Notes: a model not told the origin generated them from the letters alone. DNA of 64,000 bases from Raja brachyura (GCA_963514005.1 OY740791.1:45818001-45882000); one strand, 5' to 3'. Shown: positions 8,400-62,938, counted from the stretch's first letter. Numbers and translations: made by a program.

Positions 8400-8497
8400 G
8401 CTTTAAGAAATGAGCTGAATTGTAATTGGTCGGATATGCCTGCTACATTATCCACCAATCAGGAGGTCGGAGGCGACTGGTGATCTGCACAGCGCTT
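8400..8497 (+). promoter_or_regulatory. Promoter module of variable exon 2
   Basis: GCTTTAAGAAA 8400, ATTGG 8425, CCAATCAG 8455, GGTGATCT 8479; 343 bp upstream of the ATG. Confidence 0.8.
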
Positions 8498-8742
8498 TAC
8501 AATACCCAGCCGCCATCGCGACCGATCAGACGCCGTGAACACTGGATAGGCAGCAGCTCCGGACGGTTTCTGCTCGATTCATTTCGAACTTGATATAAAA
8601 TCAGAACGGTTAAATGAAAACATTGGAACAATTCGGAAAGGAGGTAGAGATATTTTCTGCGCTGTATTTGTTTCATTCAAATCAAATCGCTGTTGAAAGG
8701 CATTGTCTCGGGTTGAAACCATTGGAATGATTTCTACTGGAA

Positions 8743-11190
8743 ATGAGAGATAATATATATTGGCTGCTGAAATACCAACTATTGTGCTGCTTTTTCTGCC
8801 CCTGGAACTTTATTGCTGGGCAGATTCGATATTCCGTTCCCGAGGAATTGCAACTGGGTGCCTTTGTTGGGAATATCGCAATTGATTTGAGGTTAGACTT
8901 AAAGCAGCTCCCGGCTCGCAGTTTGCGGGTGGCGCCCAGCCCAAGGAAGCGGTATATTGACGTAAATTTAGCAAAAGGGATTTTATTCGTGATTGAAAGA
9001 ATCGACAGAGAGCAGCTTTGCGGGCCGAGAACCGAATGCATTTTACCCTTGAACGTCGTGCTTGAAAATCCCCACACTCTTCACCAGGTGGAAGTGGAGA
9101 TACTCGATGTAAATGACAACGCTCCCAGTTTTCCAAAAAGACAGATCCGCCTTGAAATCTTAGAGAATATGGCACCGGGAGCGCGATTCCCCCTCGAGCC
9201 CGCTCACGATCCGGACATTGGGACGAACTCCGTGCAGACTTATCAGCTCCTTCCTAATGAGTATTTCATTCTTGATGTACAAGAACGTGGCAGGATAGGA
9301 AATTTACCAATGTTAGTGCTGCAGAGGACACTGGATAGAGAAACGACATCGACCCATGAGGTAACGCTGCTTGCTGAAGACGGCGGGCTCCCTGTAAGAT
9401 CGGGAGAGGTTCAGGTAACTATCAGAGTGAAGGATGTGAACGACAATCTCCCTGTTTTCTCACAAGCGGTTTACAGTGTCACTATGGTGGAATCGGCTCC
9501 AGCGGGAAGTCTGATTATTAAGTTAAACGCTACTGATATCGACGATGGACCTAATGGAGAGATAACATATACTCTCAGCAGCCATAACACTGCTGACGTT
9601 CGTGAATTAGTTGCCATGAATTCTGAAACTGGTGAAATCAGACTAAAAGGACATTTGGACTTTGAACAAAGTAAAACATTTGTGATTAATGTACAAGCAA
9701 TCGACAACGGTCCTTATGCAATACCTCAACACTGTGATATATTGCTTAATGTTATCGATGTGAATGACAATGCCCCTGAAGTGTCATTGACATTTATGTC
9801 CAGTTCAGTGGCAGAAAATTCACCAAACGGAACCATTGTCGCTCTTCTCAGAGCAGAAGATAAGGATTCTGGACAGAACGGGCAAGTACAATGTCAAATT
9901 CCGAATAACTTACCCTTTAAGATGGAATCCTCCATGAAGAATAATTGGAAACTACTTGTACAACACGGGCTGGATCGTGAAATTACCTCCAGGTATGATA
10001 TCAGTGTGACATGTACGGATGCAGGGGAGCCACCCCTCACATCCAAGAATAATATCCGTGTAGATGTTTCAGATGTAAATGATAACGCACCGAGGTTTAC
10101 GCAGGCTGCATACACGGCAAATGTCATGGAAAACAACGTTATTGGGGATTCCATATTCTCCCTCACAGCCAATGATCGAGACACGAGACAAAACGCCAGA
10201 TTAAACTTTACTATCCTGAATTCAGTCGTGGCCTCATATGTCTCCATTAACGCACAAAGTGGTGTCATTTGTGCTCAGAAATCGTTTGACTACGAACAAT
10301 TGAAAAATTTCCAAATCCATGTACTAGTGCGGGATTCTGGAGTCCCACCGCTCTCCAGTAACGTTACAGTAGACGTTGTTATCCTCGATCAGAACGATAA
10401 CGCTCCAGTGATCGTGAATCCTTTGCCCGAATATGGGTCAACTGTACTTGAGACAATATCCAGGTTTGCAGAACCTGGATACCTAGTTGCCAAGGTATCC
10501 GCTACTGACGCCGACTCCGGACAGAATGCCCGTCTGACTTACCACGTATTTCAGGCCACCCACCGTAATCTTTTTACTATTTCAGAGGACACAGGGGAAA
10601 TTTGGACTATCCGTGGCATTGAGACAAAGGATGCGTCTAAACAATGGCTGGTGATTGTTGTAAAAGATAATGGAATCCCATCACTTTCAGCCACAGTAAC
10701 TATTGTACTGTCTGTGAAAGGAAGCGACATGATTTCCAGTGCCACCAGTCTATCTAAAGATCACGTCTTCTCTCCAGATTTGAACCTTTCCTTGGTCATA
10801 GCCTTAGGGACGACGTCTATCATTTTCCTCGTGATTTTAATTATCCTTGCTGTTAAGGTTCATAAAAACAGAAACTATGTAGGACACCAATATAATTCTC
10901 TGAACGTCTGCTGCTGTTTGGAATCAAGGAGTTCTGTGAATGGGATTCAAAAGGCCAGCAGAAGTCTTCAGATAGCACCGAACTACGTTGAGGTATTCGG
11001 GGGAGATCCGCTTTCGCAGAGTTTCCGTTACGAGTCTTGTTCAACATTGCAGTCCGTGAAGAGAGATTTCAGGACCCCTCAAACTTGTGGGCTATCTACA
11101 GCAATGAAATATATCGAGAAAAACCCTATTGGGAAAGATAACCCAGGAATGAAAAGATCTGAAAAGTCAAACTGCCGTGTGAATAACGAG
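8743..11190 (+). CDS. Clustered protocadherin variable exon 2; 816 codons
   Basis: ORF 8743..11226 with six cadherin repeats and a TM; donor GAG|GTGAGT, GT at 11191, phase 0. Confidence 0.96.
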
Positions 11191-12312
11191 GTGAGTTATG
11201 TCAAAGAAAGAAAAACAATCTGTTAAGTCTGGACATTACATCTTAATTACATGTTAGGCTCAGATGTCCCATTATGTTCGAATGGTAAAAATATGCTTCG
11301 CTTAATCTATTGGAGTGATTCAATTGATTTGACTTGGTTGATATCAAGGGACATAGGTGTATTCAAGCTTAATGATGTGACCGGCATTACGTGGTGCTGT
11401 CAATGCTCGGCTACTGTTGTACTTTTAGAAGGAGAATGTGGGACTTTGTAAATAACTCTGAAGACATGTCAGTGATTTATAGCAGTGTATTCTATGGCAG
11501 ACAGTATGGATTTCTAAAGGACTCCCTGTAATGGTAATTATTCTGTAAACATAGTTCTGGATGGTATTTTACTTTCTGAGAGATCTTGGGGTCACCTATG
11601 CAGGCAAATAGACAGTATTCCACGGGGGTTCTGATGCCTCCTTCTTAGTCTTGGGGCGTCTATGGAGTGCCCCCCAAAGCCTAAAGAAACGCATATGTGG
11701 CCTGCAGTCGCAGCCAAAGTATGTATGTGGCCTGTTCAAATGTTTCTGATAAGTAAGGAGACATGGATTAATAAGGCATATGATTTTCTCATTATTTGCT
11801 TATGCAGAATGCATTTCATGGTTGGCCAGATTTGGGAAAGATTATAAAGAAACGTCCAGTGGGTTATCCAGTGCATTCTGTGGGGGTCTGAATGAAATCT
11901 GAAAGGCATTTTAGGCATCTATAATCAAGGTGAACGTTTTACCATGACTCATGTTCAGCAGTCCATGTGTTGTTGCAATTACAAATCCAGGCATTTGGAA
12001 AATATCCTAATCAAAATATGGTTTGCCATTTTCAAGTGGCAAAAGAGCAGGGAACCTTATCCTCACTTCAAAACACAATGACTGGTGTCTTGTTATAACC
12101 AGGCAATTCGTTTAGCTAATTCACCAGTTCCTAATATACGGCGAAACCATGTTATTGGGATACGAATTCAACAATTATAGTGCGAAATCATTAGAGTGGG
12201 AGTAGTTACCATATCTGTTGCTGGGGATAGCTGGTGCCTACCATTTATATTATCTGTGAAGTGCTTCCTCCTGGCATCACAATTTTCTGGGACCTGTCTT
12301 AGATGGTGCACC

Positions 12313-26134: not shown

Positions 26135-26232
26135 GCTTTAAGAAAGGAGCTGAATTGTAATTGGTCGGATATGACTGCTACATTATCCACCAATCAGGAG
26201 GTCGGAGGCGACTGGTGATCTGCACAGCCCCT
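26135..26232 (+). promoter_or_regulatory. Promoter module of variable exon 5
   Basis: GCTTTAAGAAA 26135, ATTGG 26160, CCAAT 26190, then GGTGATCT. Confidence 0.8.
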
Positions 26233-26477: not shown

Positions 26478-28925
26478 ATGAGAGATAATATATATTGGCT
26501 GTTCAAATACCGACTATTGTGCTGCTTTTTCTGCTCCTGGGACCTTGTTTCTGGGCAGATTCGATATTCGATTCCCGAGGAATTACAACTGGGTGCCTTT
26601 GTTGGGAATATCGCAATTGATTTGGGGTTAGATTTAAAGCAGCTCCCGGCTCGCAGTTTGCGGGTGGCACCAGGACTGGAGAAGCGGTATGTTGACCTAA
26701 ATTTAGCAAAAGGTGTTTTATTTGTGAATGAGAGAATCGACAGAGAGCAGCTTTGCGGGCCGAGCATCGATTGCATTTTACCCCTGAACGTCGTGCTTGA
26801 AAATCCCCTCAGTCTTCACCAGGTGGAAGTGGAGATTCTCGATGTAAATGACAACGCACCCAGTTTTCCCAAAAGCCAGATACGTCTTGAAATCTCAGAG
26901 AATATGGCACCGGGAGCGCGATTCCCCCTCGAGCCCGCTCACGATCCGGACATTGGGACGAACTCCTTGCAGGCGTATCAGCTCATTCCCAATGATTATT
27001 TCATTCTTGATGTACAAGAACGTGCTAGGATAGGAGACTTACCCGTGTTAGTGCTGCAGCGGGCCCTGGATAGAGAAACCATATCGATCCATAAATTAAC
27101 GGTGCTTGCTGAAGACGGCGGAGTCCCTCTAAGATCAGGTATGGTTCAGGTAACTGTTAGAGTGAAGGACGCGAACGACAATCCCCCTGTTTTCTCACAA
27201 GCAGTTTATAGTGTCAGTCTGCTGGAATCGACTCCCACAGGAAGTCTGATTATTAAGTTAAATGCCACTGATTTGGACGATGGCCCTAATGGTAAGATAA
27301 CATATTCCTTCAGCAGCCATAATTCTGCTGACGTTCGCGAATTAGTTGCCGTGAATTCTCAATCTGGTGAAATCAGACTGAAAGGATATTTGGACTTTGA
27401 ACAAAGCAAAACCTTTGTGATTAATATGGAAGCAACCGATCATGGTTCTCCTTCAATGTCTCAACATTGTGATGTGTTGGTGGATGTTATCGATGTTAAT
27501 GACAATGCACCTGATGTGTCATTGACATCCATGTCCAGTGCAGTGGCTGAAAATGCTCCGATCGGAACCATTGTCGCCCTTCTCAGCGCAAAAGATAAGG
27601 ATTCTGGACAGAACGGACAAGTAAAATGTCAAATTCCGAATAAAGCCGCATTTAAGCTGGAAACATCAGTGAGGAATAGTTGGAAACTGCTTGTACAACA
27701 CGGGCTGGATCGTGAAACTATCCCCAGGTATGACATCGTTGTGACATGCACGGATGCAGGGGACCCACCGCTCACAACCAAGAAAAATATCCATGTAGAT
27801 GTTTCTGATGTAAATGATAACGCACCGAGATTTACGCAGGCTGCATACACGGCAAATGTCATGGAAAATAACGTTATTGGGGATTCCATATTCTCCCTCA
27901 CGGCCGACGATCCAGACACGGGACAAAACGCCCGATTAAACTTTACAATCTTTAATTCAGTTGTGGCCTCGTATGTCTCCATTGACTCACAAAATGGTGT
28001 CATATTTGCTCAGAAATCATTTGACTACGAACAATTGAAAAACTTCCAGATCCATGTATTGGTGCGGGATTCTGGAGACCCACCACTGTCCAGTGACGTT
28101 ACAGTGAACGTTGTTATCCTCGATCAGAACGATAACGCTCCAGTGATCGTGAATCCTTTGCCAGAGCATGGGAAAACTGTAATGGAGACAATATCGAGGT
28201 TTGCAGAGCCTGGGTACCTAGTTGCCAAGGTATCCGCTACTGACCACGACTCCGGTCAGAATGCCCGTCTGACTTATCATGTTTTTCAGGCCACCCACCG
28301 TAATCTTTTTACTATTTCAGAGGACACAGGGGAAATTTGGACCATCCGTGGCATTGAGACAAAGGATCCACCTGAACAAAGGCTGGTGATTGTTGTAAAA
28401 GATAATGGAATCCCGTCACTTTCAGCCACAGTTACCATTGTTCTATCTGTGAAAGGAGGCGACACGATATCCAGTGCCACCAGTCTTGCTAAAGATCACG
28501 TCTTCGCTCCAGATTTTAACCTTTCCTTGGTCATAGCTTTAGGAACGACATCTACCATTTGCCTCGTGATTTTAATTATCCTGGCTGTTAAGGTTTATAA
28601 AAACAGAAATGGCGTGGAACGTCAATATGGTTCCCTGAACGTCTGCTGTTGTTTGGAGTCAAGGAGTTCTCTGAATGGGATTCAAAATGCCAGCAGAAGC
28701 CTTCAAATACCACCGAACTACGTTGAGGTATTCGGAGGGGATCCGCTTTCTCAGAGTTACCGTTATGAGTCTTGTTCAACGTTGCAATCTGCGAAGAGAG
28801 ATTTAAGGACTACTCAAACGTACGGGCTATCTACAGCAATGGATTATATCCCGGAAAAAACGATTGGCAAAGAGAACCCAGGAATGTTAAGTTCTGAAAA
28901 CTCCAATTGCCTTGTGAATAACGAG
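26478..28925 (+). CDS. Clustered protocadherin variable exon 5; 816 codons
   Basis: ORF 26478..28949; donor GAG|GTGAGT, GT at 28926. Confidence 0.96.
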
Positions 28926-31521: not shown

Positions 31522-31619
31522 GCTTTAAGAAATGAGCTGAATTGTAATTGGTCGGATATGACTGCTACGTTATCCACCAATCAGGAGGTCGGAGGCGACT
31601 GGTGATCTGCACAGCCCCT
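31522..31619 (+). promoter_or_regulatory. Promoter module of variable exon 6
   Basis: GCTTTAAGAAA 31522, ATTGG 31547, CCAAT 31577, then GGTGATCT. Confidence 0.8.
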
Positions 31620-31864: not shown

Positions 31865-34312
31865 ATGAGAGATAATATATATTGGCTGCTCAAATACCGA
31901 CTATTTTGCTGCTTTTTCTGCCGCTGGGACCTTGTTTCTGGGCAGATTCGATATTCGGTACCAGAGGAATTGCAAGTGGGTGCCTTTGTTGGGAATATCG
32001 CAATTGATTTGGGATTGGATTTAAAGGAGCTCTCGGCTCGCAGAACACGAGTGGCGCCCAGCCCGAGGAAGCGGTATGTTGACGTAAATTTGCAGAATGG
32101 GGCTTTATTTGTGAATGAAAGAATCGACAGGGAGCTGTTTTGCGGGCCGAGCATAGAATGCATTTTACCCTTGAATATCGTACTTGAAAATCCCCTCGGT
32201 CTTCACCAGGTGGAAGTGGAGATACTCGATGTAAATGACAACGCTCCCAGTTTCCCCAAAAGCCAGATCCGTCTTGAAATCTCAGAGAATATGGCACCGG
32301 GAGCGCGATTCCGCCTCGAGGCCGCTCACGATCCGGACATTGGGACGAACTCCTTGCAGACTTACCAGCTCCTCCCCAATGAGTATTTTATTCTTGATGT
32401 ACAAGAACGTGTTAGGGTAGGAATTACACCGGTGTTAGTGCTGCAGAGGGCTCTGGACAGAGAAACGACATCGACCCATGACATAACGGTGCTTGCTGAA
32501 GACGGCGGTGTCCCTGTAAGATCGGGTACGGTCCAGGTAACCGTCAGAGTAAAGGACGCGAACGACAATCCTCCCGTTTTCCCGCAAGCGGTTTATAGTG
32601 TCAGTATGGTGGAATCGGCTCGCATAGGAAATCTGATTATTAAGTTAAACGCCACCGATTTGGACGATGGCCCTAATGGAGAGATAACATATTCCCTCAC
32701 CAATCATAACTCTGCTGACGTTCGTGAATTAGTTGGCGTGAATTCGAAAACTGGTGAAATCAGGCTGAAAGGACATTTGGACTTTGAACAAAGCAAAACC
32801 TTTGTGATTAATATAGAAGCAACCGATCATGGTTCTCCTTCAATGTCTCAACACTGTGATGTGTTGGTGGACGTTATCGATGTGAATGACAATGCCCCTG
32901 AATTGTCATTGACATCTATGTCCAGTGCCGTTGCAGAAAATGCTCCAATCGGAACAATTGTCGCCCTTCTCAGCGTAGAAGATAAAGATTCTGGACAAAG
33001 CGGGCAAGTACAATGTCAAATTCCAAGTCAACTACCCTTTCAGCTGGAATCATCTGTGAAGAATAATTGGAAACTCCTTATACAACAAGGACTGGACCGA
33101 GAAACGAACTCGGGGTATGACATCACTGTGACATGCGCGGATGCAGGGGACCCACCGCTCACATCTCAGAAAGATATCCGTGTCGATGTTTCTGATGTAA
33201 ATGATAACGCACCGAAGTTTACGCAGGCTGCATACACGGCAAATGTCATGGAGAATAACGTTATTGGGTATTCCATATTCGCCCTCACTGCCTATGATCT
33301 AGACAGGGGACAGAACGCCCGACTAAACTTTACAATCCTGAATTCAGTCGTGGCCTCATATGTCTCCATTGACTCACAAAATGGTGTCATTTTTGCTCAA
33401 AAATCATTTGACTACGAACAATTGAAACATTTCCAAATCCATGTAATGGTGCTGGATTGTGGAGTCCCAACGCTCTCCAGTAACGTTACAGTAGACGTTG
33501 TTATCCTCGATCAAAACGATAACGCCCCAGTGATCGTGAATCCTTTGCCCGAGCATGGGTCAACTGTAATGGAGACAATATCCAGGTTTGCAGAGCCAGG
33601 ATACCTAGTTGCCAAGGTATCCGCTATTGATGCCGACTCCGGTCAGAATGCCCGTCTGATTTATCATGTTTTTCACGCCACCCACCATAATCTTTTTACT
33701 ATTTCAGAGGACACGGGGGAAATTTGGACCATCCGTGGTATTGAGACCAAGGATGCATCGAAACAAAGGCTGGTGATTGTTGTAAATGATAATGGAATCC
33801 CATCGCTTTCAGCCACAGTGACCATTGTACTATTTATGGAAGGAAGCGACACGATATCCAGTGCCACCAGTCTTTCTAAAGATCACGTGTTCTCTCCAGA
33901 TATGAACCTTTCCTTGGTCATAGCGTTAGGGACAACATCTATAATTTTCCTCGTGATTTTAATTATCCTTGCTCTTATGGTTCATAAAAATAGAAATGGT
34001 GTAGTACGCCATTACAGTTCTCTGAACGTCTGCTGCTGTTTAGAATCAAGGAGTTCTCTGAATGGGGTACAAAAGGCCAGCAAAAGCCTTCACTTACCAC
34101 CAAACTACGTTGAGGTATTCGGAGGTGATCCGCTTTCTCAGAGTTACCGTTACGAGTCTTGTTCAACGTTGCAGTCTGCCAAGAGAGATTTAAGGACCCC
34201 TCAGACATGTGGCCTATCTACAGCAATGGGGTATGTCCAGAAAAACCCTATTGGAAAGGAGGACCCAGGAATGATAAGTTCTGAAAACTCCAACTTTCGT
34301 GTGAATAACGAG
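31865..34312 (+). CDS. Clustered protocadherin variable exon 6; 816 codons
   Basis: ORF 31865..34567; donor GAG|GTGAGT, GT at 34313. The last 84 aa of the ORF are intronic. Confidence 0.96.
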
Positions 34313-37738: not shown

Positions 37739-37975
37739 NNNNNNNNNNNNNNNNNNNNNNNNNNNNNNNNNNNNNNNNNNNNNNNNNNNNNNNNNNNNNN
37801 NNNNNNNNNNNNNNNNNNNNNNNNNNNNNNNNNNNNNNNNNNNNNNNNNNNNNNNNNNNNNNNNNNNNNNNNNNNNNNNNNNNNNNNNNNNNNNNNNNNN
37901 NNNNNNNNNNNNNNNNNNNNNNNNNNNNNNNNNNNNNNNNNNNNNNNNNNNNNNNNNNNNNNNNNNNNNNNNNNN
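37739..37975. other. Assembly gap (237 N)
   Basis: Run of N preceded by (GATA)n. Confidence 1.
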
Positions 37976-39237: not shown

Positions 39238-39334
39238 GCTTTAAGAAACGATGTGCACGGGGATTTGCTGAATATCAATGCGCCCGTATTCACCAATCAG
39301 AAGTCAGGTTGGGCTTGGTGATCCGGACAGCCCT
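39238..39334 (+). promoter_or_regulatory. Promoter module of variable exon 7
   Basis: GCTTTAAGAAA 39238, ATTTG 39263 (degenerate), CCAATCAG 39293, GGTGATCC 39317; 350 bp upstream of the ATG. Confidence 0.78.
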
Positions 39335-39587: not shown

Positions 39588-42041
39588 ATGAGGTACAAAA
39601 TATATTGGCTGCTAAAATGTCGATTGCTCTGCTGCCTCTTCTCTTCATGGGGTATGGTTTCGGGGACGATTCGTTATTCGATTCCTGAGGAGCTGCAACT
39701 GGGAGCCTTTGTTGGGAACCTCGCAGACGATTTGGGTTTAGATATAAATCAGCTATCGACACGAGGTTCCCGCATCGTGGCCGGTTCCAAAAAAATATAT
39801 ATGGACATCAATTTGGACAATGGAATTCTCTTTGTGAAGAAAAAAATCGACAGAGAACAGCTATGTAAGTCGAGTATCTTTTGTGTGTTATCCTTCGACG
39901 TTTTGTTCGAAAATCCGCTGAAATTGTACACGGTTTCAGTGGAGATTCTCGATGTAAATGATAACGCTCCTATTTTTCCAGAGAGCCAAATCGGCCTTGA
40001 AATCCCGGAGCTGGCTGCACCGGGAGCCCGTTTCCTCCTCGAGTCTGCGCAGGATGCCGATGTTGGAACCAACTCCTTGCAAACTTACAAGCTCCAGCCA
40101 AACGAATATTTCTTTCTCGATGTGCAGACGCGCAGTGGGAGTGAAATGTTACCAGTATTGGTGTTGCAGAGGCCCTTGGACAGGGAAAAACAATCCATCC
40201 ACAAATTGGTCTTGGTAGCAGAAGACGGCGGTGTTCCTTTAAGATCGGGCACCGTTCAGGTTACTATAACAGTGAATGATGCAAACGATAACGTGCCTAT
40301 TTTTTCTCAGTCGGTATATAGAGTCAGCCTGCTTGAGTCCGCACCCAAGGGAACGCTTATTGTCAAATTAAACGCCACTGATCCGGACGATGGACCTAAC
40401 GGGGAGATAATGTACTCTTTCACCAGCCATAATTCAGCCAGAGTACGTAAACTTTTTGCTGTTAATTCCAAAAATGGTGAAATTAGACTGAAAGGGAATT
40501 TGGATTACGAGGAAAGTAGCACAGTTCAGATGAACGTACAAGCAATTGATATGGGTTTAAACGCAATGGCTGTGCGTTGTGATGTGTTACTGGACATTAT
40601 TGATGCCAATGATAACGTGCCCGAGGTGACGCTCACATCTCAGTCAAGCAAGGTTTTGGAAGATGCCCCTAATGGGACGGTAGTGGTATTGTTCAGTGTA
40701 GAAGACAAGGACTCGGCCCAAAATGGACAAGTGCAATGCCAAATTTCAAACAATCTGCCCTTTCGATTAGATTCGACTCTGAGGAATTATTACGAGCTCC
40801 AAATTGATCAGCCGTTGGATCGTGAGAATACGTCTAGCTATGATATGACTATAACATGCACGGATTCAGGGATCCCTCCTCTCTCATCCGAGTCAACGGT
40901 TCGTGTAGAGGTTACAGATGTAAATGACAACGCGCCACGATTTTTGCATCCCTCGTACACAGCAAACGTCGTGGAGAATAACGTTATTGGTGCTTCTATA
41001 TTACGTTTGAATGCCATCGATCCAGACGCAGGACACAATGCCCGATTGAAATTTTATTTTCTGGAGCCCGCGCTTCAAGGCACACAAGCATCGTCTTATG
41101 TATCGATTAACTCAACGAGTGGAGTCATATTCGCCGAAAGATCATTTGACTACGAACAATTGAAACACTTCCGCGTCCAGGTTCAGGTGCAGGATTGTGG
41201 AGTCCCACCGCTCACCAGTAACGTTGCAGTGGATGTTGTTATCCTCGATCAGAATGATAACGCCCCAGTCATCGTGAGTCCTTTGCCGGAATATGGGTCA
41301 ACAGTAATGGAGACAATTTCCAGATTTGCCGAACCGGGATATCTTGTGCTCAAGTTATCAGCTATAGATGCTGACAATGGTCAAAATGCCCTTCTCTCTT
41401 TCCAAATTTATCAGGCTACCCATCACGACCTTTTTACTATTTCGCCAGAGACTGGCGAAATTTGGACTACCCGACGAATCATGAGCAGGGATGCTTCGAT
41501 TCAAAGACTGGTGATTGTGGTAAAAGATAGCGGAAATCCTCCTCTTTCAGCCTCTGTGACGATATTATTGACGGTAGCAGGCGGTCACAGTCAAACATTC
41601 TCCAGTATTAACAGTGTTACTGAAAATACCGGGTTCACTTTGGATCTGAGTTTTTCCTTGGTCATAATCTTAGGAATAACATCCAGCGTTTTATTTGTTA
41701 TTTTAGTCATACTCGGATTTATTGTTCATAGAAACAGACAAGGATTGGGAGGGCAGCGCTGTTCCCTGTGCGTTTGTTGTTGTTTTGGACCAGGGGCATC
41801 TCTGAATGGAATTCAAAAGGCCAGTAGAAGCCTTCAGATCCCTCCTAATTACGTAGAGGTATTCGGGGGCGATCCACTTTCTCAACGATTTCGATACGAA
41901 TCGTGCTCAACGTTGCAATCGACGAATGCCAAAGCTTACGGGCAACCTGCAGACAAGCATTATGTCCAGACAGAGTTTTTCAGGAAAGGCAAACCTGAAA
42001 AGGGGAATTTGGACAATTGCAGCAGCACTGTAAACAACGAG
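39588..42041 (+). CDS. Clustered protocadherin variable exon 7; 818 codons
   Basis: ORF 39588..42068; donor GAG|GTGAGA, GT at 42042. Confidence 0.96.
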
Positions 42042-48589: not shown

Positions 48590-48686
48590 GCTTTAAGAAA
48601 TGACCATGGCAGAGATTGGTCGAATTTGAGGGATTCCGTTTGCCAATCAGGAGCTGCGATGTGACTGGAGATCTGGACTGCCCCCT
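48590..48686 (+). promoter_or_regulatory. Promoter module of variable exon 8
   Basis: GCTTTAAGAAA 48590, ATTGG 48615, CCAATCAG 48643, GGAGATCT 48667; 347 bp upstream of the ATG. Confidence 0.8.
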
Positions 48687-48936: not shown

Positions 48937-51396
48937 ATGGGATATTATCGAGTATTATGGATGTTAAACTGGCAACTGTTCTATTGCGTTGTTTTCGACT
49001 GGGTTGTGGCTTCTGGACAGATTCGCTATTCGATCCCTGAAGAACTCCAACTCGGCGCCTTTGTTGGAAATATTGCAGACGATCTGGGGCTACGTACAAA
49101 GGAGCTCACGGCTCGCAATTTTCAGATTGTGCCCGGTTCCCGGAAACAGTATTTGGAGGTAAATTTAGACAATGGAATTATGTTTGTTAAACAAAGAATC
49201 GACAGGGAACAGTTGTGTGGAGCAAGCCTAACATGCACATTGTCTTTGGAAGCTGTAGTCGAAAATCCTCTGACCGTGTATCGCATTGAAGTGGAGATTC
49301 AGGACGTAAATGATAATACTCCCACTTTCCCGAACAGCCAGATACGCCTTAAAATTTCAGAGCATGCAGCGCCGGGAGCGCGCTTTCCCTTGGAGGGTGC
49401 ACGGGACTCGGACGTTGGAACAAATTCCTTGCAGACCTACCAGCTGACTGCCAACGAATATTTCACATTAGACATTGACTCACGCGGTGGGGACCGCAAG
49501 TTTGCAGTGCTAGTGCTGGATCGATCTTTGGATAGAGAAAAGCAAGCGACATACAAGTTGGAACTGCTCGCCAAAGACGGGGGGGTCCCTGCTAAGACGG
49601 GCATTGCTGAGATAATAATTGTAGTGCAGGACGAAAACGACAATGCACCTGGTTTTCCAAACTCCGTTTACAGAGTTAGTATCCTAGAAAATGTGCCCAA
49701 AGGAACGCTGGTTATCAAATTAAACGCCACGGATTTAGATTATGGCTCCAATGGCGACATATTGTACTCGTTCAGCAGTCAATCGTCTGTTAGAGCCCGT
49801 GAATCGTTTTATGTGGATTCCAGAACGGGGGAAATCAGAGTCAAGGGAAATCTGGACTATGAGGAGGAAAGTATATTTGAGATTAACATACAGGCACTGG
49901 ACCAGGGTATTAATCCAAGTGCCGGATACTGTCACGTCGTGGTTAACATTATAGATGTCAATGACAACGCCCCTGAGGTGAAGTTAACCTCTTTGTTCAG
50001 CCCAGTCCGCGAGGACTCACCACCCGGGACCGTTGTGGCTTTGATTGGTGCATCGGACGCTGACTCTGGAGATAATGGGCAGGTAGATTGTGAAATCGCA
50101 GCGAGACTGCCTTTCACGTTGGATTCGTCTCTGAGAAATTATTACAGGCTACTTACACATCGGCGGCTGGACAGAGAAAATACCTCTAGATATGACATTC
50201 CTATTATGTGCAGTGATTCTGGCTCTCCTCCCCTCGTCTCCAGGAAAACCATTGCAGTGGAAGTTTCGGATATAAATGACAATCCGCCGCATTTTACGCA
50301 GTCTACCTACACGGCTTACGTGATGGAGAATAACGTCATTGGGGCACCAATCATCACAGTCATGGCTGTTGATGTAGATTTGAGTCAGAACTCCCAATTA
50401 TATTACTCTGTTCTGGAGAGCCAAGCGCTGGGCGAGTCTGCGTCCACTTACGTCAGGGTCAATCCCAAAAACGGCGACATATTTGCTCAGAGAACGTTCG
50501 ACTACGAGCAACTGAAAAACTTCCAGATCCAAGTCCAGGCCATGGATTCTGGGGAGCCGCCACACACTGCCACCACATTCGTGGATGTAGTTATCCTTGA
50601 CCAGAATGATAACGCTCCGGTGATCGTGCATCCTGACACAGAGTACGGTTCAACAGCGTCGGAGACAATATCCCGCTCTGCAGACCCAGGCTACCTGGTC
50701 ACCAAGATTACAGCCACTGATGCTGACTCGGGTCAGAATGCACGACTCTCCTACCAGATTCTCCAGTCGACTGACCTGGGACTTTTCACTATCTCCCCCG
50801 ATACAGGAGAAATCTGGACAATCCGCAGCTTCGCAAGAAAAGATGCAAACAAGCAAAGGCTGATTGTTGTTGTGAACGATAATGGGACCCCAACACTCTC
50901 TGCCACGATGACCCTCGTCTTGTCGGTGGCAGAAGACAACACAGAAATTCTTTCTCGTGTCAACAACTTAACTGAAGATGCTGGCGAGATAAGCTTTTAC
51001 TTAGTTATAGCTTTAGGCATCATCTCTTCCACTTTCTTACTCATTTTGATTGGCCTTGCTATCACAGTGTACAAAAACAGACACGGATTTGGGGGATATA
51101 CGTGTTCCCTGGATACATGCTGTTGCTTTTCAACGAGGTCCTCACTGAATAACTTCCAAAAGGGCAGGAGAAATATTCAGATACCGCCGAATTATGTCGA
51201 AGTATTTGGAGGCGATCCTCTTTCTCAACGGTACCGCTACGGAACCTGTTCCACTTCCACTTCCAGCAAAGGAGATTTTTTGCACTCCAACGGGTGCAGT
51301 TCGTCTACCGCCAGGAATTATGGCAGGGGCGAAATTGTGTGCAATAATGAACAGTCACAGTCATCGCATTCTAACAATTATAGCAACATTGGTGAG
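48937..51396 (+). CDS. Clustered protocadherin variable exon 8; 820 codons
   Basis: The track starts at GTG 48928; the aligned ATG is at 48937 (MGYYRVLW). Donor GAG|GTGAGG, GT at 51397. Confidence 0.95.
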
Positions 51397-54835: not shown

Positions 54836-54923
54836 GCTTTAAGAAACGAACATTGTTCTGATTGGTGCGCCGCAAACAACCAATCAGCACCTACTGTGTG
54901 ACTGGAGATCTTGACTGCCCCCT
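54836..54923 (+). promoter_or_regulatory. Promoter module of variable exon 9
   Basis: GCTTTAAGAAA 54836, ATTGG 54861, CCAATCAG 54880, GGAGATCT 54904; 364 bp upstream of the ATG. Confidence 0.8.
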
Positions 54924-55199: not shown

Positions 55200-57665
55200 A
55201 TGAGATGTTATAACCTATTTTGTTGCTTAAAATGGGAACTGTTGTATTACATGTTTATCGCCTGGGAGATAATTTTCGCAGAGATTCATTACTCGATTCC
55301 TGAAGAATTACAACGTGGCGCCGTTATTGGGAACATCGCGGCCGATTTAGAGTTGGATGTTAAACAGCTCGCAGCTCGTAATTTTCGTTTGGTTTCAGGT
55401 CCAAAAAAGCGGTATTTGGAAGTAAATTTAAACAATGGGATTTTGTCTGTGAAGGAGAGGATTGATAGGGAAGAACTGTGTGGCGCAAGCCTTACTTGCG
55501 TTCTGTCTTTGGAGGCCGTGCTTGAAAATCCTCTCAGTCTGTACCAAATCGAAGTGGACATTGTGGATATTAACGACAACTCTCCCAGTTTTCCAAAAAG
55601 CCAATTCCGCCTTGAAATCTCTGAGAATATTGCGCCGGGAGCGCGATTCATTCTCGACGCCGCTCACGATCTAGATATTGGAACTAACTCTGTTCAAACT
55701 TACCAACTCGTTACAAATGAGTACTTTGCATTAAATGTTGAATATGGAATCGCAGATTTGAAATTACCAGTTTTAGTGCTGGAAGAGCCCTTAGACAGGG
55801 AAAAGCATTCGACCCACAAATTACTGCTCTTAGCCAAAGATGGCGGAGTCCCCGAAAGGACAGGCTCCGCCCAAATTAATGTCGTGGTAGAAGATGCCAA
55901 TGATAATGCGCCGGTGTTCTCTCGGTCGATTTACAAAGTCAATTTGTGGGAAAATGCGACAAAAGGGGCATTGGTACTTCAAGTAAATGCTACTGATTTG
56001 GATGATGGCCCCAATGGAGAGATTGTGTACACTTTAAGTACTCATACCTCTGCCAGCGTCCGTGAGATTTTTAGTGTGGATTCTCGTACTGGTGAAGTAG
56101 AACTTAATGCTAATTTAGATTACGAAGAAAATAATGCTTTTGATATTATTATTCAAGCAAAGGATAAGGGATCTAACGCCATCCTGGTGTACAGTCATAT
56201 TTTGCTAAATGTTTTAGATGTAAACGACAACGCGCCTGAGATAAGCTTGACATCTTTATCGAGCCCAGTTGCAGAGGATTCGTTACCTGGAACAGTGGTA
56301 GCTCTCATAAGTGCGTCTGACAGAGATTCCGGCAGAAATGGGCAACTCCGGTGCCAAGTTGAAAATGAAGTGCCTTTCACACTCGATTCATCGTCCAAGA
56401 AGCACTTCAAACTACTCACCCAGCAACCTCTAGATCGCGAATCCGCCTCCACACACAACGTAATAATCAGCTGTAGAGATGAAGGCAGTCCGCCTCTCGC
56501 CTCCAACAAAAGCATCCTAATTGAAGTGTCGGACAGGAACGACAACGCACCACAATTCTCGCAACCTTTCTTCACAGCCTACGTGACGGAGAATAGTAAT
56601 ATTGATGCCTCGATATTCTCAGTGATGGCTTTTGATCCAGACAAAGGTGAAAATGCTCGGCTGTCGTACGACATTCTGGACAGTTGGGTACAAGCTCAAT
56701 CGGTACACAATTATGTTTATATTAAAGCAGAGACTGGTGTAATATATTCCTACATATCTTTTGACTATGAAAAGTTAAAAAACTTTCAGATCCGTGTTCA
56801 GGCACATGACAATGGAGTCCCACAACTCTCCAGCAATGTCTCCGTAGATGTTATAATTCTTGACCAGAATGATAACGCCCCGGTGATCGTTCATCCATTA
56901 ATCGAGTATGGGCAACCTGCCACAGAGGCTGTATCCCGTTTTGCGGAAGCAGGCTATCCAGTGACCAAAGTTATGGCTACAGATGCTGACTCTGGTCCAA
57001 ACGCTCGCCTATGCTATCGGATCCTCCAAGCTACAGACATGGGACTATTTACTATTGCTGACGAGACGGGAGAAATATGGACAACCCGTGCTGTTACAAA
57101 GACAGATGCTACCAAGCAAAGGCTGGTGATCGAAGTCAACGACAACGGGATACCACCTCTTTCAACTTCGATAAGTATAATCTTGTCATTGATCGATGAC
57201 GAGGGATCACTAATGTCCGACAGGAACAGCATGTTGGAAAGGCCCAAACCTCCTTCTGTTACCAGCTTCTACTTGGTCATTTCATTGGGAATAATTACGA
57301 CTATTTTTCTGGTAATTTTAATTATTCTAGCTGTTAAAGTTCACAACGGCAGAAATGCCTTTGAGTACCATGGCTGTGTTCTGGGCCCGTGTGGTTGCTT
57401 CGGGTCAAGACATCCCCGCAACGGAATCCAGAAAGCCAGTCGCAACCTACGCATTCCTCCCAATTACGTTGAGGTATTTGGGGGAGACCCGCTATCACAG
57501 AGTTACCGCTATGAAACTTGTTCCATGGCACGTTCAACAAAGGGAAACCTTTTGTTCCCCAACACCTGCAGTTCATCAAATGGAAACGACAAAACCATCG
57601 GTGAAGTTATTGCAAAGGGAGGAACCGTGTTGTTCAGTAATTGTGAGAATAATGTTCATTCTGAG
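55200..57665 (+). CDS. Clustered protocadherin variable exon 9; 822 codons
   Basis: The track starts at TTG 55179; the aligned ATG is at 55200 (MRCYNLF). Donor GAG|GTGAGA, GT at 57666. Confidence 0.95.
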
Positions 57666-58115: not shown

Positions 58116-58976
58116 CTACTATGTGAATCATATAGCTGTTTCAGGGGCGTGGTAACGTTTATTACCGAAATTTTTTGTAATCACGAATTGACAGAATAGG
58201 TTCGGCACATAAATAGGTCCTCCTGCCCATTATTTCGGTATGATAGCAAAAGACCTAGCCAGGTCATTCATGCCTTACAATAGTTCATATATTGCCTTGC
58301 AGTTAAGGTTATTGAAAAAAATACTCAGGCACATTTTAAATATATTGAGGGGATTTTGACACCAAAAATGAACTAACTGTACCTGCCACAACCCAATCAT
58401 GAAAAAAAATCAAAATATATATTTCAATATTTCTACTAATTGCCTTCAATCTATTCCCGTTGGTTCCACAGTCGTCTGTAGATAAAATGATAATTAATCC
58501 CACGGTTATGGTGTTCAATTCTTCGTGTCATTAGTCCTTTCAGAGTGTGCAACCTCTTGTGTGGGACACCATCGTCGTTGCAAAAGCTAGTTTCAACCTG
58601 ATGGACTACATTCTGAGGTTATCCATGCACTCCTACCTGAAAAAATGCCAATTCATTTAAAACATTTTTCACATTTAGTCATCCGAAATTCACACAGTGT
58701 ACCATTTCCAATTTTATTCTGTGGTCATATTCAAGTTTTTTAACCGTATTAAATGTTAACTCTAGAAAATGACAAGTAAGCTTACTTTTGGTGATTTATT
58801 CAGTGCAGTAGAACATCTGGCCACAATCAAATTAGAGAGCAACTAGGTGTCAATCCACTTTAGAAGTTAACATCGTTTAAGGAATACAAAAATAATGAAA
58901 GAAAATAGTAATTAGATTTTATATCGGACTGCCTTAAATATCAGTTACTTGCGCCAAACTTTAGAAATGCAGTCCA

Positions 58977-59072
58977 GCTTTAAGAAATGTGGAGTGCAGA
59001 GATAGGTTGAAGTTAAGTCGGCCTTTTCCACCAATGAGAGGCTGTTATGTGCCCGGAGATCCTTGCTGCCCT
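58977..59072 (+). promoter_or_regulatory. Promoter module of variable exon 10
   Basis: GCTTTAAGAAA 58977, ATAGG 59002 (degenerate), CCAAT 59031, GGAGATCC 59055; 368 bp upstream of the ATG. Confidence 0.78.
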
Positions 59073-59344
59073 ACCCTCCCCTTCCGCCATTATATCCGTC
59101 TGGATACCGTGTAACATGGATAGAGCTGTGCTTGCTTACGTTCGGTTCTTTACATTCATCTACTGGCGAAATCATAAGAAATAAGAAGGTTTGTCAGAAA
59201 TTGTTACGCAGATTTTTTAAACAGCGGCTATATTTTTTTTTTGTGCATTTCAGTGAAAATGGAATAACGATTCACTCTTTTTAGCTGGAATTGTTCAACG
59301 TCGCCGCGTTGTTCTCAAATCATTTGAAATGCTTTGTTCTGGAA

Positions 59345-61774
59345 ATGGAATTTTATAAACGATATTGGCTATTGAAATGGCAACTTTTTTACTGTATTAT
59401 CCCTTTCTGGCAAATTATTTCTGGACAGATACGTTATACGATTCCTGAAGAATTGAATGCCGGAGCTTTTGTTGGAAATATCGCAGAGGATCTGGGTTTG
59501 GATATAAAAGATCTCTCGGCTCGCGGCTTTCAAATTGTGCCTGGACCTAGCAAGGAGTATATAGACGTAAATTTAGATACTGGTGTTTTGTTTGTGAAGG
59601 AAAAGATGGACAGAGAACAGTTGTGTGGGCAGAATCGTGTTTGCACATTCTATATGGAGGCAGTGATTGAAAATCCTCTGAATGTGTACCATTTCCAAGT
59701 GGACATTTTGGATGTAAATGACAATGCGCCGAGATTTCCCGAGAGCCAGTTCAATTTGGATATATCGGAGCTGGCTGCTCCGGGTACGCGCTTCGCCCTG
59801 GAGCGCGCAGACGACCCAGACGTTGGCACCAACTCGGTACAAAGCTACCGGCTGGTAGACAACGGCTATTTCTCCCTCGACGTGGAAACGTTGGGCGGCG
59901 ACGGAAAGTTACCGGTTTTAGTCTTGGAAAGACCGCTGGACAGAGAAAAGGAAAGCACGCACAGGTTGGTGTTGATATCGAAAGACGGAGGGATTCCTGA
60001 GCGATCTGGAACTGCTGAAATACTGATCGGCGTGGAGGATGCCAACGACAACGCGCCTGTTTTCTCCCAGCCCATCTATAGGGTCAGTTTGCCAGAGAAT
60101 GCACCCATAGGTATATTGGTGATACAATTAGATGCCTCTGATTTGGATGTTGGTCTGAATGGGCAGATAATATATTCGTTCGGCAGTCATACTTCGAATC
60201 CAATTCGGGAACATTTTGGGCTGGATTCGAATAGTGGCGAAATCAGAGTTAAGAACACTTTGGATTACGAGAAAAATAGTATTTTTGAAATTAATGTTCA
60301 AGCAAAAGATAATGGGCCATACGCTACCGTGGTGTACTGTCACGTTTTGGTCAATATCGTTGATGTGAATGACAACGCTCCTATTGTAACGGTGACATCT
60401 TTATTCAGTCCTGTCGGGGAAGACGCGCTACCGGGGACTGTAGTGGCTCTGATCAGTTCCACAGACAAGGATTCGGCTGAAAACGGGCGCGTGGATTGCG
60501 AAATCCCAAATGACCTTCCTTTTAAACTGGATTCGTCCTTAAATAACTATTATAGACTAGTTACTCGGGAAACGCTGGATCGTGAGCGTGTATCATCTTA
60601 CAATGTAACAGTTGTGTGTGGCGACGCCGGGAATCCTCCGCTAACATCGAACAAAACGGTCCTGGTTGAAGTCTCCGATATAAACGACCATCCGCCTCAA
60701 TTCACACAGCCTGTGTATACAGCTTACGTGATGGAGAATAATGTAATTGGTGCGTCAATATTCACTGTGACAGCTTTGGATCAAGATCTAAATAGGAACG
60801 CCCATCTGTCCTACTTTATTTTGGAGACTCAGATACAGGGCATGTCAATATCCACATACGTCTCCATCAACAGTGGGGTCATATTTTCGCAGAGGAGTTT
60901 CGACTACGAACACCTCAAAGGCTTTCAGGTCCAGGTTCAGGCGCGGGACTCTGGGATCCCACCACTTTCTGGCAACGCCTCAGTGGATGTGATGATATTG
61001 GATCAGAATGACAACGCTCCGGTGATCGTGCATCCGTTACCCGAATTCGGTTCCACCGTGTTAGAGACGATATCCCGGCACGCAGAACCGGGCTACCTGG
61101 TCGCCAAAGTTTCGGCTACAGACGGTGACACTGGTCAAAATGCTCGCCTTTCCTACCAGATCTGTCAAGCTACAGATGCCGGCCTCTTCACCATTTCACC
61201 GGACACTGGAGAAATCTGGACAATACGCAGTATTAGGAAGAATGACGCCGCCAAGCAAAGGTTGGTCATCTGCGTCAAGGATGACGGATCACCGCCTCTT
61301 ACAGCCACTGTGGCAATCGTCTTGTCTTTAGTTGGAAATGATAGACAAATGCTTTCAGATGTGAATAATTTGTCTGAGGGTGCCGGGTTTGCTTCTGGCA
61401 CCAGCTTTTACCTTGTAATAACTTTAGGGATCACATCATCCGTTTTTCTATTGATATTGATTATCCTCGCCATTAAGGTCCATAGAAACTCTTCCCTTGG
61501 CGCATGTGGTTGTTTTACAGCAAGAAACTCATTGCACAGAGCCAACAGAAGCCTTCAGATACCACCAAACTATGTTGAGGTATTTGGAGGTGATCCTCTT
61601 TCGCAGGGCTTCCGCTATGATTCATGCTCAAGTTCACATTCTGTAAAGAGGGATGTCAGGTTGTCCAACGGTGGATCTACGCGTAAGAATTACGCTCCTG
61701 GTGGCATTTTGGGAAATGACGATACTTTGCAAAACCTCAATTCAGCACAGTACATGAATACTCTAAATAACGAG
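59345..61774 (+). CDS. Clustered protocadherin variable exon 10; 810 codons
   Basis: The track starts at TTG 59291; the aligned ATG is at 59345 (MEFYKRYW). Donor GAG|GTGAGG, GT at 61775. Confidence 0.95.
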
Positions 61775-62369
61775 GTGAGGTTGCTATTTGATGGCGAAAA
61801 AAACACCTCATGGGTTTCAATTGGATATACAAATGATTACTGAAAATGCGTAATCCCGGACATTGTATTTTGGGAATATCTAAGAATCAGTCATATCAGT
61901 GTCCATTGTGATTTGAGTTTCCAATCGCTATTTCTGGACCTATTCCTTTGTTAATCAGGCATTTGCCTTTTGGTGCGTTTATATTGACTTAACATTTCGT
62001 TTCATTTGGTAGCTAGGAAAAATATTGCCATTGAGAACGTATGGATTAAGTAATTTCACACGACAGTCCTAAATATATATTATCAACTACACTTTGGTGG
62101 TAGAAAACCACTAACTAATGATCACATTGGATAAAGGGTCTGGACGTGTAACGGAACTCAGTTCCATGGTTCTGATATCATGCGTTTTAGCATTTAATTG
62201 TTTTTTTCCATTGAGACTTTGTGATATAATATGCTTTATTTTCCAAGGGAAATAACTCGTCAGCAGTCAACGTGTTATAAAATCATGAATTAAGCATATG
62301 AGTTTACCATAATATGTGTAGCTGATTTGTTTTGAAATAGGCACAAAATCATATGCAACAAGCTTTGCA

Positions 62370-62580
62370 GATACAAAGAACTGCAGATGCTATTATACAC
62401 AAAAGGACACAGAGTGCTGGAGTAACTCAGCGGGTCAGCAGCTTCTCTGAGGAACATGGATAGGTGACTTTTTCCATCGGGACCCTTTAGATTGGAAGAA
62501 GGGACCCGAGCCGAAACGTCAGCTGTCCATGTTTTCCAGAGAGTTTCTCCAGCACTTTGTGTATTTTTGGACCAAGCATT
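62370..62580. mobile_element. Palindromic short Penelope-derived element
   Basis: AGAACTGCAGATGCT...GACACAGAGTGCTGGAGTAACTCAGCGGGTCAG...GAAGAAGGGACCCGAGCCGAAACGTCA...CTCCAGCACTTTGTGT. Confidence 0.78.
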
Positions 62581-62849
62581 GAATCGTCCATAATCGCATA
62601 AAAGTGTTTCTTAAAAAAAAAAAAAGTATATTTAGAGATAGCATTGTCTGATTTGTTTTGAGAGCACGAAAAACAAATCTTATCACTATATTTCGGTGAC
62701 AATAACAAACCTATATTTAAAGCTGCTGACTCTTTGAAAATCCACCAAAAGTAAGCAAGGCAAAGGAAATCAAATCAATGCGGGAAATGGTGTAAGAAAT
62801 TTACATTGTACACTGACAAAATATTACAGAGATAAACAGGGACATTCCA

Positions 62850-62938
62850 GCTTTAAGAAATGTCCTGGGTGGTGATTGGTTGAACGTCAGTTCACCAATC
62901 AGAAGCTGCAATGTATCTGGTGATCTTGACTGCTCCCT
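62850..62938 (+). promoter_or_regulatory. Promoter module of variable exon 11
   Basis: GCTTTAAGAAA 62850, ATTGG 62875, CCAATCAG 62895, GGTGATCT 62919; 356 bp upstream of the ATG. Confidence 0.8.

Follow-up and report, generated by a model that had tools for sequence, protein, structure and literature searches.

To our knowledge, it is only for mammals that the choice of single neurons among protocadherin isoforms is understood; forward CTCF sites, cohesin and methylation play central parts there. Skates belong to the sister group of bony vertebrates, and a tandem protocadherin cluster of the skate Raja brachyura keeps a different, CCAAT-centred module upstream of its variable exons. The locus raises the question of what kind of promoter this module forms, and whether it points to another mechanism of isoform choice.

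The Pcdh-nu variable exons

The 64-kb window, which is the whole stretch of DNA analysed, contains clustered protocadherin variable exons 1–11 of the Pcdh-nu subcluster, all on the plus strand. Each consists of one large exon encoding six cadherin repeats, a transmembrane segment and a variable cytoplasmic part (two of the 11 proteins were domain-scanned), and a splice donor closes all ten complete exons. Exon 1 (16..2469) is an open reading frame with a GTGAGA donor after the EV codons and is 94% identical to a named skate isoform; its promoter lies beyond the window. The coding part of exon 2, from ATG to splice donor (8743..11190), was delimited by reading frame, donor and BLAST, and exon 3 (14769..17213) encodes Cadherin_2, five Cadherin and Cadherin_C_2 domains. 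Reading frame and donor define exons 4 (21299..23728), 5 (26478..28925), 6 (31865..34312), 7 (39588..42041), 8 (48937..51396) and 9 (55200..57665). Exon 10 (59345..61774) is 95% identical to an Amblyraja isoform spliced to a nu-type constant region, and the reading frame of exon 11 (63206..64000) is cut by the window end.

The constant exons of the cluster lie outside the window, and the evidence for splicing to a nu constant region is indirect. Skate isoforms that are 94–95% identical to exons 1 and 10 run into a nu-like constant region, which resembles that of elephant shark nu8, nu13 and nu17 in a BLAST comparison with the hits to the C-terminal part of one exon, epsilon and mu proteins being left out. 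Among solved ectodomains compared at equal length, the skate nu exons score best against C-type chains, with gamma-C4 as the top EC1-4 entry in all three queries; this likeness may reflect slow evolution of the C-type rather than kinship. Part of the stretch is contained in 20 sequencing runs, among the 21 matches listed; none of those containing it is marked as RNA in that listing, in which six rows are RNA only by conjecture. Among 111 candidate stretches from metagenomes, one codes for a distant relative, at 34% over 64 residues, which we set aside.

Layout and conservation of the promoter module

A previous sequence-only reading of this DNA had described a single layout in all ten visible promoters, 343–368 bp before the ATG, and its coordinates and counts were all reproduced. 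The module comprises, in this order in 10/10 promoters, block A, a reverse CCAAT-like box (B), a forward CCAAT (C) and block D. Block A, GCTTTAAGAA, occurs ten times in the 64 kb, always on the plus strand and never on the minus strand, and each time at that distance 5' of a variable-exon ATG, compared with an expected count of 0.15 under an order-2 Markov model. Its true length is that of the 11-mer GCTTTAAGAAA, found in nine of the ten promoters, a count reached by 0/100 shuffles. ATTGG lies at +25 from block A in seven promoters and is replaced by ATTCG, ATTTG and ATAGG in exons 4, 7 and 10, respectively, while GGWGATCY begins 24 bp after the forward CCAAT in all ten; here, too, the earlier counts (ATTGG 7/10, CCAAT 10/10) hold. 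The grammar had been called rigid, which is true of the two outer spacings, A-to-B (25 bp) and C-to-D (24 bp), the only constant ones, but not of the box-to-box gap. From exon 2 to exon 11, the ATTGG-to-CCAAT distances are 30, 30, 30, 30, 30, 30, 28, 19, 29 and 20 bp, forming two classes (19–20 and 28–30 bp) about one helical turn apart.

All modules lie on the plus strand. That of exon 2 spans 8400..8495 (A 8400-8410, reverse CCAAT 8425-8429, CCAAT 8455-8459, D 8478-8495), that of exon 3 14426..14521 (A 14426, reverse box 14451, CCAAT 14481, D 14504-14521), and that of exon 4 20956..21051 (A 20956 with T as its 11th base, broken reverse box ATTCG 20981, CCAAT 21011, D 21034-21051). They are followed by the modules of exon 5 at 26135..26230 (A 26135, reverse box 26160, CCAAT 26190, D 26213-26230), exon 6 at 31522..31617 (A 31522, reverse box 31547, CCAAT 31577, D 31600-31617), exon 7 at 39238..39333 (A 39238, broken reverse box ATTTG 39263, CCAAT 39293, D 39316-39333) and exon 8 at 48590..48683 (A 48590, reverse box 48615, CCAAT 48643, D 48666-48683). 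The module of exon 9 at 54836..54920 (A 54836, strong reverse box 54861, CCAAT 54880, D 54903-54920) has the 19-bp box spacing and that of exon 11 at 62850..62935 (A 62850, strong reverse box 62875, CCAAT 62895, D 62918-62935) the 20-bp spacing; between them lies the module of exon 10 at 58977..59071 (A 58977, broken reverse box ATAGG 59002, CCAAT 59031, D 59054-59071). With a leave-one-out C+D profile, each promoter scores 36–53 bits and the best other site at most 5.4, and scanning with the C+D profile revealed no relic or additional copies elsewhere in the window. Metagenome scans for the module pattern gave 0 matches. From module to ATG, CpG is in slight excess (0.84–1.13, window 0.76), which we do not take as evidence.

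Exons 2–6 form a recent clade, with promoters 0.84–0.92 identical, and because they are recent duplicates, the promoters represent about six independent lineages rather than ten. Over these six lineages, 11/11 columns of A, 7/11 of C and 10/19 of D are invariant, as are 0/13, 0/18 and 1/13 columns of the spacers. No four-fold site (0/29; mean identity 0.41) is invariant while every column of block A is, which argues for selection on this block. These comparisons show that blocks A, C and D are kept by selection and that the promoters are of shared ancestry. The fixed spacers could have arisen by descent and, taken by themselves, are not significant (P about 0.09–0.23, estimated from indel density). 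Two events (about 0.05) underlie the helical-turn pattern of the box gap, and a short gap coincides with a strong reverse box in two of six lineages (1 in 15); exons 9 and 11, whose boxes stand closer together by about 10 bp, are not sisters (support 90/89 and 81/80).

Candidate factors and direction of transcription

The NF-Y, TBP and CTCF matrices and the REST- and GATA-type motifs used here are working versions, not database copies. With the NF-Y matrix, the forward CCAAT scores 12.1–16.5 bits (p<=4e-5) in 10/10 promoters, and 12 of the 23 window-wide hits at p<1e-4 fall inside modules, which agrees with the NF-Y-type promoter predicted earlier. The symmetric divergent CCAAT pair proposed with it is not supported, as the reverse box reaches p<1e-4 in only two of ten promoters, those of exons 9 and 11 with the short gap; it scores about 2e-4 in five and has a broken pentamer in three.

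We favour, with a probability of roughly 0.55, a reading in which the skate Pcdh-nu promoters would be sense promoters centred on NF-Y and a lineage-specific counterpart of the mammalian CSE, copied with their exons and kept by selection. NF-Y would bind C, keep the region open and cooperate with two sequence-specific factors, one at the roughly 18-bp block D, probably of the zinc-finger type, and one at A. In some promoters, a second NF-Y could occupy B, and the B-to-C gap would tolerate changes that come in steps of roughly one helical turn. NF-Y CCAAT boxes typically lie 60–100 bp upstream of the start, and the main start is predicted 60–100 bp downstream of C. The common blocks would give every promoter equal competence to fire in the sense direction; since all promoters carry the same blocks, the choice made in a neuron would have to be set outside the module, for example by enhancer competition or methylation.

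The factor at D may instead be CTCF. Of the 20 CTCF hits at p<1e-4 across the window, one is located in the 450 bp upstream of an ATG, and this in a single promoter, so the earlier statement that no good CTCF core is present was correct. Across the module promoters, a forward core scores -4.1 bits in its best shared register (working matrix plus triplet code), no CTCF upstream motif common to the lineages was found, a CGCT box is absent at any common position across lineages (within block D it occurs only in exon 2), and block D holds no shared CpG. All lineages do, however, share a partial reverse match in block D, identified post hoc (55/66 positions). In that case, CTCF fingers 1–5 would read block D on the minus strand as a weak site, a CSE-like anchor beside NF-Y with a polarity opposite to that of mammals and no methylatable CpG. 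This is the best shared CTCF register within the module, and its ZF5-1 half is equalled by 1/300 column-shuffled matrices and 1/200 shuffled motifs. Positions 10–12 read GGC in five of six lineages, positions 14–15 fit in all six, and a freely variable ZF2 triplet followed by GA at positions 19–20 (6/6) agrees with the geometry given in passages of PMC10484683, where base-specific contacts are lacking for ZF2 and GAG at 19–21 is read by ZF1. Weak cores are described for all mouse cPcdh promoter sites in parts of bioRxiv 2024.04.07.588438, and an excerpt of PMC7793273 mentions overlap of NF-Y and CTCF on neuronal differentiation. Against this stand the ZF7-6 part (NCA NNA triplets), which scores -5 to -10 bits and is negative in 10/10 promoters, with C2 missing in 6/6 lineages; a full core matched by 27/300 shuffles and an extended model matched by 16/300; only 2/5 upstream-motif letters at the expected offset; T instead of G at position 21 in 6/6; and four invariant D bases left unaccounted for. 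Moreover, the match is one among 11 motifs, two others of which fit equally (the REST right half, 0/200 shuffles, and AGATCTTA, 2/200), and mammalian cPcdh promoter sites are oriented forward. We regard a reversed CTCF site as unlikely.

The missing CGCT box and forward CTCF site are nevertheless weak evidence, because mouse Pcdh promoter cores are weak, CSE-less C-type-like promoters are known and D fits CTCF fingers 1–5 in reverse. The different or ancestral mechanism proposed earlier does not follow from a missing CTCF core, given the weak mouse cores, the CSE-less mouse alpha-c2, gamma-c4 and gamma-c5, a frog motif in gamma-c4/c5-like genes and the CGCT element attributed to the elephant shark.

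The sequence-only reading had further envisaged an NF-Y promoter that may fire in both directions and carries a TATA-like site on the minus strand at A, from which an upstream antisense transcript would take part in CTCF-free isoform choice. Read leftward, a C-rich block, two CCAAT boxes and an AT-rich block do stand in the order usual for TATA promoters, the reverse box is CCAAT-oriented for the minus strand at a fixed 25 bp from A, and a forward CTCF site is absent. Yet the TBP matrix favours the plus strand at block A in 10/10 promoters (1.8 to 5.5 bits, compared with -2.1 to -0.2 on the minus strand and a maximum of 16.7), and the reverse box is broken in three of ten promoters and strong in two. 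Upstream polyA signals show no asymmetry, with 14 on the minus and 10 on the plus strand within 1 kb (five lineages) and 6 and 4 within 200 bp (six lineages); an apparent excess over the coding side (14 vs 2) was discarded, as it vanishes once the opposite strand of that DNA serves as the reference. The analogy with Pcdh-alpha antisense RNA, which begins within the exon and traverses the sense promoter, is geometrically wrong, because a divergent start at A would read away from the sense promoter and its transcript could not traverse it. We found no sequence support for antisense firing at the module and judge this model distinctly unlikely: the NF-Y-type promoter stands, as does the absence of forward CTCF sites and of a CSE with a CGCT box, while the minus-strand TATA, the symmetric boxes and the antisense output are unsupported.

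It is very unlikely that A instead acts as a weak TATA-like element on the plus strand, with a sense start about 30 bp downstream, just after ATTGG, and CCAAT and D in the 5' leader. Block A is the best local plus-strand TBP match in 10/10 promoters, its distance to B is constant, and a pyrimidine-G step aligns at A+31/+32 in five of six lineages, although this step is equally predicted by minus-strand NF-Y flanks. The TBP score nonetheless remains far below its maximum, 11 invariant bases including GC fit a specific factor better than TBP, NF-Y on B would overlap the start, and the resulting leaders would carry up to 11 upstream ATGs.

Nor does it seem at all probable that D serves mainly to confine expression to neurons, whether as a repressor site in the form of a REST right half-site or as a GATA site of the GATC type. 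The REST right half matches at 42/60 positions and AGATCTTA at 34/48, and NRSEs are documented in the fugu, zebrafish and elephant shark (five) clusters (PMC2926608). The left half is not in register, however (82/200 and 75/200 shuffles), a full NRSE occurs in 0 promoters (the best match in the window, 12/15, lies in coding DNA), and exon 10 matches at only 4/10. Sp/KLF, YY1, ZNF143, NFI, canonical GATA and full REST motifs, also working versions, did no better at D than shuffles (52–197/200), and among the motifs tried none matched A or D in full. Finally, a likeness without function, left among the tandem duplicates by descent or by conversion between the genes, which accounts for exons 2–6 and can account for the fixed spacers, is extremely improbable and already disfavoured by the alignments, in which spacers at 0.32–0.51 identity alternate with invariant blocks where conversion should leave continuous tracts, and four-fold sites are near saturation.

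The nu promoters and other protocadherin clusters

The NF-Y-centred sense reading thus describes what may be an old, conserved CCAAT-centred promoter standing in place of the mammalian element; the sequence alone establishes no new mechanism. Its defined blocks of 11–18 bp open to test the question whether stochastic choice arose before the CTCF mechanism or can run without it. If CTCF binds D, its polarity would be the reverse of that in mammals and the enhancer layout would be predicted to differ; should neither be the case, the module is simply another lineage-specific promoter motif among these clusters. A more speculative possibility, which we put forward tentatively, is that the Pcdh-nu promoters of cartilaginous fish lack a forward CTCF anchor. 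Sharks and skates would then diversify their neuronal protocadherins either without the mammalian CTCF-loop and methylation switch, through enhancer competition between equal NF-Y promoters, or by means of oppositely oriented CTCF half-sites. Choice based on the CSE would in that case have been invented in bony vertebrates, from an ancestor that was C-type-like and driven by CCAAT, and A would be the site of yet another factor.

The protocadherins of the elephant shark, whose cluster comprises delta, epsilon, mu and nu and was reportedly described by Yu et al. 2008, include the same nu subcluster as the skate exons. A CGCT element is said there to have been found by Yu et al. 2008, according to part of a later paper, and the skate module may already be in that study or its supplement. 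PMC1852091, PMC2764143, the supplements of PMC7087399, PMC11947266, PMC11968269 and the ZNF143 preprint yielded neither a promoter motif for sharks nor the sequence of a CSE.

Pcdh-alpha choice by antisense lncRNA through an exonic CBS shares with the skate cluster only the general feature of a choice among tandem promoters. Its RNA runs convergently from the exon and not divergently from the promoter, and the CTCF-like coding hit of the skate (+335) is restricted to exons 2–6. This hit was rejected as a general exonic site, being present in five of the ten exons checked, all of one clade and in conserved codons, and absent from exons 1 and 7–10.

Promoters lacking a CSE yet otherwise conserved have precedent (PMC4978886). 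Xenopus pcdh-gamma2 15–36 carry a 13-bp promoter motif instead of the CSE and group with the C-type gamma-c4/c5, and the alpha CSEs of zebrafish and Xenopus lack CGCT (PMC4978886, in which CCAAT has 0 occurrences). The frog genes resemble the skate exons in a lineage-specific motif that replaces or alters the CSE and in their C-type affinity, but their motif is separated from the ATG by about 200 bp and the skate module lies farther out. NF-Y promoters with a USF E-box at 10–12 bp or TALE at 11 bp, described in passages of PMC7793273 that present fixed-distance partners as a known property of NF-Y, likewise pair a strong CCAAT with a neighbour that is conserved and sits at an unchanging distance, and double boxes also occur among them; the skate partners differ in lying about 20–24 bp 3' of each box and in matching no named motif in full.

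The mammalian CSE, a forward CTCF site with a CGCT box, was compared with the module by its described features. The module differs in its lack of a common-position CGCT, a forward CTCF core, an upstream motif and a shared CpG in D, and in being CCAAT-centred and 264–368 bp from the ATG instead of about 200 bp. Both are nonetheless shared conserved elements that lie a few hundred bases 5' of each ATG and are copied with the exon.

Locus identity and conservation of the promoter module

An ORF scan of the window revealed 11 tandem ORFs on the plus strand, each of about 820 codons. Both of the two ORFs scanned for domains contain Cadherin_2, five Cadherin, and Cadherin_C_2 domains, the set found in clustered protocadherin variable exons, and in all ten complete ORFs a GTGAG donor directly follows the EV codons. 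The C-terminal portion of exon 10 shares 92% identity with an isoform of Amblyraja radiata; among named elephant-shark entries, it matches Pcdh nu8, nu17, and nu13 best. Six of ten exons have 92–95% matches among named skate isoforms, and a nu-like constant region follows in those corresponding to exons 1 and 10. On the strength of these sequence features, we assign the locus to the skate nu subcluster. Exons 2–6 (8743–34312) form a recent five-copy expansion that extends to the promoters and to a portion of the cytoplasmic segment. A broken LINE-like retroelement lies between exons 7 and 8 (43300–46800, minus strand); judged by their motifs, its fragments resemble a reverse-transcriptase ORF2 and an ORF1 of the esterase type.

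The promoter module of exons 2–11 consists of a 5′ block (A), a reverse CCAAT-like box (B), a forward CCAAT box (C), and GGWGATCY with the following stretch (D), located 343–368 bp before the ATG; all counts given for it in the sequence-only reading held on recount. The block A motif GCTTTAAGAA occurs ten times in the window, only in promoters and only on the plus strand (expected 0.15), and extends to an 11-mer in nine of the ten promoters. Because exons 2–6 are a recent clade with promoters 0.84–0.92 identical, the independent sample comprises six lineages rather than ten: exon 3, standing for this clade, and exons 7, 8, 9, 10, and 11. Among these, four-fold degenerate sites have a mean identity of 0.41, with none of 29 invariant, whereas invariant columns number 11/11 in block A, 7/11 in C, 10/19 in D, and 3/11 in B, compared with 0/13, 0/18, and 1/13 in the three spacers. 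This excess over spacers and four-fold sites leads us to regard the blocks as being under selection. A leave-one-out profile of C and D scored every promoter at 36–53 bits and other window sites at 5.4 or less, revealing no additional module copies in the window.

Spacing and a candidate NF-Y promoter

All motif scores (NF-Y, TBP, CTCF, REST, and others) are tied to working versions of the matrices, not to database entries. The NF-Y matrix matched the forward box strongly in all ten promoters (12.1–16.5 of 20 bits, p ≤ 4e-5), supporting the proposed NF-Y-type promoter; the reverse box reached p < 1e-4 in two of ten, and its pentamer is broken in three. Strong intergenic NF-Y-type boxes without blocks A or D lie at 4493 (−), 37570 (+), 38122 (−), and 53485 (−), two of them flanking an assembly gap (37739–37975). 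CCAAT boxes are usually found 60–100 bp 5′ of the transcription start, and the region about 55–125 bp 3′ of each forward CCAAT is the likely start region. Weaker conserved blocks are present there (CCAY, GAWCA, RTGWAA, and TGGAYRGC; e.g., 8510–8560), of which a YY1-like reading fitted no better than shuffles.

The six-lineage alignment contains 27 gap blocks: none in A–B or C–D, four in B–C, and 23 downstream, the latter at 14 places within 247 bp. The layout described earlier as rigid is gap-free within these two pairs, but the B-to-C distance is 28–30 bp in four lineages and 19–20 bp in two (exons 9 and 11). Because two 13-bp spacers would be gap-free at the downstream gap density with P of about 0.09–0.23 (hand arithmetic), the fixed spacing is no more than suggestive. 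In the protein tree, exons 9 and 11 do not group as sisters (moderate support), which makes two separate losses of about one helical turn probable; of nine downstream gaps of at least 4 bp, just two are 9–12 bp long. The reverse box is strong only in these short-spaced promoters (54836–54884 and 62850–62899), and the two events are a hint that a pair of NF-Y sites may cooperate in a phase-dependent way.

We favor, with a probability of roughly 0.55, a promoter transcribed in the sense direction, in which NF-Y at the forward box would act together with further factors bound to A and D; in part of the copies, the reverse box would be bound by another NF-Y. We infer every step past conservation and motif match; NF-Y partners at fixed distance have been described (PMC7793273). 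Identical blocks would make the promoters equally competent, so the blocks alone could not choose among them.

In all ten exons 2–11, an out-of-frame ATG lies exactly 16 nt upstream of the main start codon (8727, 14753, 21283, 26462, 31849, 39572, 48921, 55184, 59329, and 63190), and the first window bases are compatible with the same ATG in exon 1. It opens an overlapping uORF of 8–9 codons (38–39 in exons 7 and 8). AATG persists even in copies without the full GGAATG around it, which suggests translational damping via leaky scanning.

Alternative readings of the blocks

The CTCF matrix gave 20 matches window-wide at p < 1e-4, with a single promoter match, in exon 10. Five lie within the coding sequence of exons 2–6, at +335 (9078, 15104, 21634, 26813, and 32200; forward, 13.9 bits, p 5e-6); they are identical, though four-fold sites of these exons are only about 0.8 identical, and are absent from exons 1 and 7–10. 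The module promoters share neither a CGCT across lineages nor a forward CTCF core with upstream motif, in agreement with the earlier remark that no good core is visible. The best shared register lies on the minus strand of block D, with GGC at positions 10–12 in five of six lineages, free variation at 16–18, and GA at 19–20 in all six. This fits the CTCF geometry reported in PMC10484683, where ZF2 lacks base-specific contacts and ZF1 recognizes GAG at 19–21. Of 300 shuffled matrices, only one equalled the ZF5-to-ZF1 half, but 27 equalled the full core and 16 the extended model; the ZF7-6 part scored negative in 10/10, and the fit is post hoc. A weak reverse CTCF site is unlikely. Block D has no CpG common to the lineages, so a CGCT-type methylation switch would be absent.

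A bidirectional antisense promoter, with block A as a minus-strand TATA-like box, is quite improbable. The TBP matrix scored block A at 1.8–5.5 of 16.7 bits on the plus strand and below zero on the minus strand in 10/10, and polyA signals 5′ of the module do not favor either strand (14 versus 10). The Pcdh-alpha antisense RNA is transcribed from the exonic site through the sense promoter, a path closed to a transcript that starts at block A and runs away from it. From the sequence-only interpretation, the NF-Y-type promoter and the lack of a shared CGCT or forward CTCF core are supported; the minus-strand TATA and the antisense analogy are not. A plus-strand TATA-like box is very improbable, as the full 11-base invariance of block A looks more like a specific factor than TBP. 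Against 11 motifs (200 shuffles), block D stood out for the REST right half (0/200), the CTCF half (1/200), AGATCTTA (2/200), and the full CTCF code (5/200); the remaining seven gave no notable fit, and none of the 11 fits the block completely. The REST and AGATCTTA values speak for a repressor or GATA site, which we rate a long shot. Neutral descent of the module is almost certainly wrong given selected blocks beside spacers and four-fold sites with almost no invariant columns.

Comparison with known protocadherin promoters

Lineage-specific shared promoter motifs in protocadherin clusters are known. The CCAAT-centered form appears new as far as could be checked in the literature found on shark and skate protocadherin promoters, on CCAAT/NF-Y with protocadherins, and on the block A letters; it may already be in print, Yu et al, 2008 and the mouse, frog, and elephant-shark motif figures lying outside this comparison.

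It is a tentative, rather doubtful possibility that isoform choice in cartilaginous fishes works without forward CTCF anchors. An elephant shark CGCT element is credited to Yu et al, 2008 (PMC2926608). Among equal-length EC1-4 solved clustered-protocadherin chains, gamma-C4 scored highest for three of three skate exons (margin 13–42 bits), a measure of similarity rather than phylogeny; longer alpha-7 and gamma-B4 entries and the non-clustered Pcdh10 scored at least as high. The missing CSE, the conserved CTCF-site element of mammalian promoters, proves little, because the mouse CTCF sites are described as having weak cores throughout (bioRxiv 2024.04.07.588438), mouse alpha-c2, beta1, gamma-c4, and gamma-c5 are reported to lack a CSE (PMC7811963, PMC6881428), the alpha CSEs of zebrafish and frog are reported without CGCT, and a different motif, 13 bp long, is described for 22 frog gamma2 genes that group with gamma-c4/c5 (PMC4978886).
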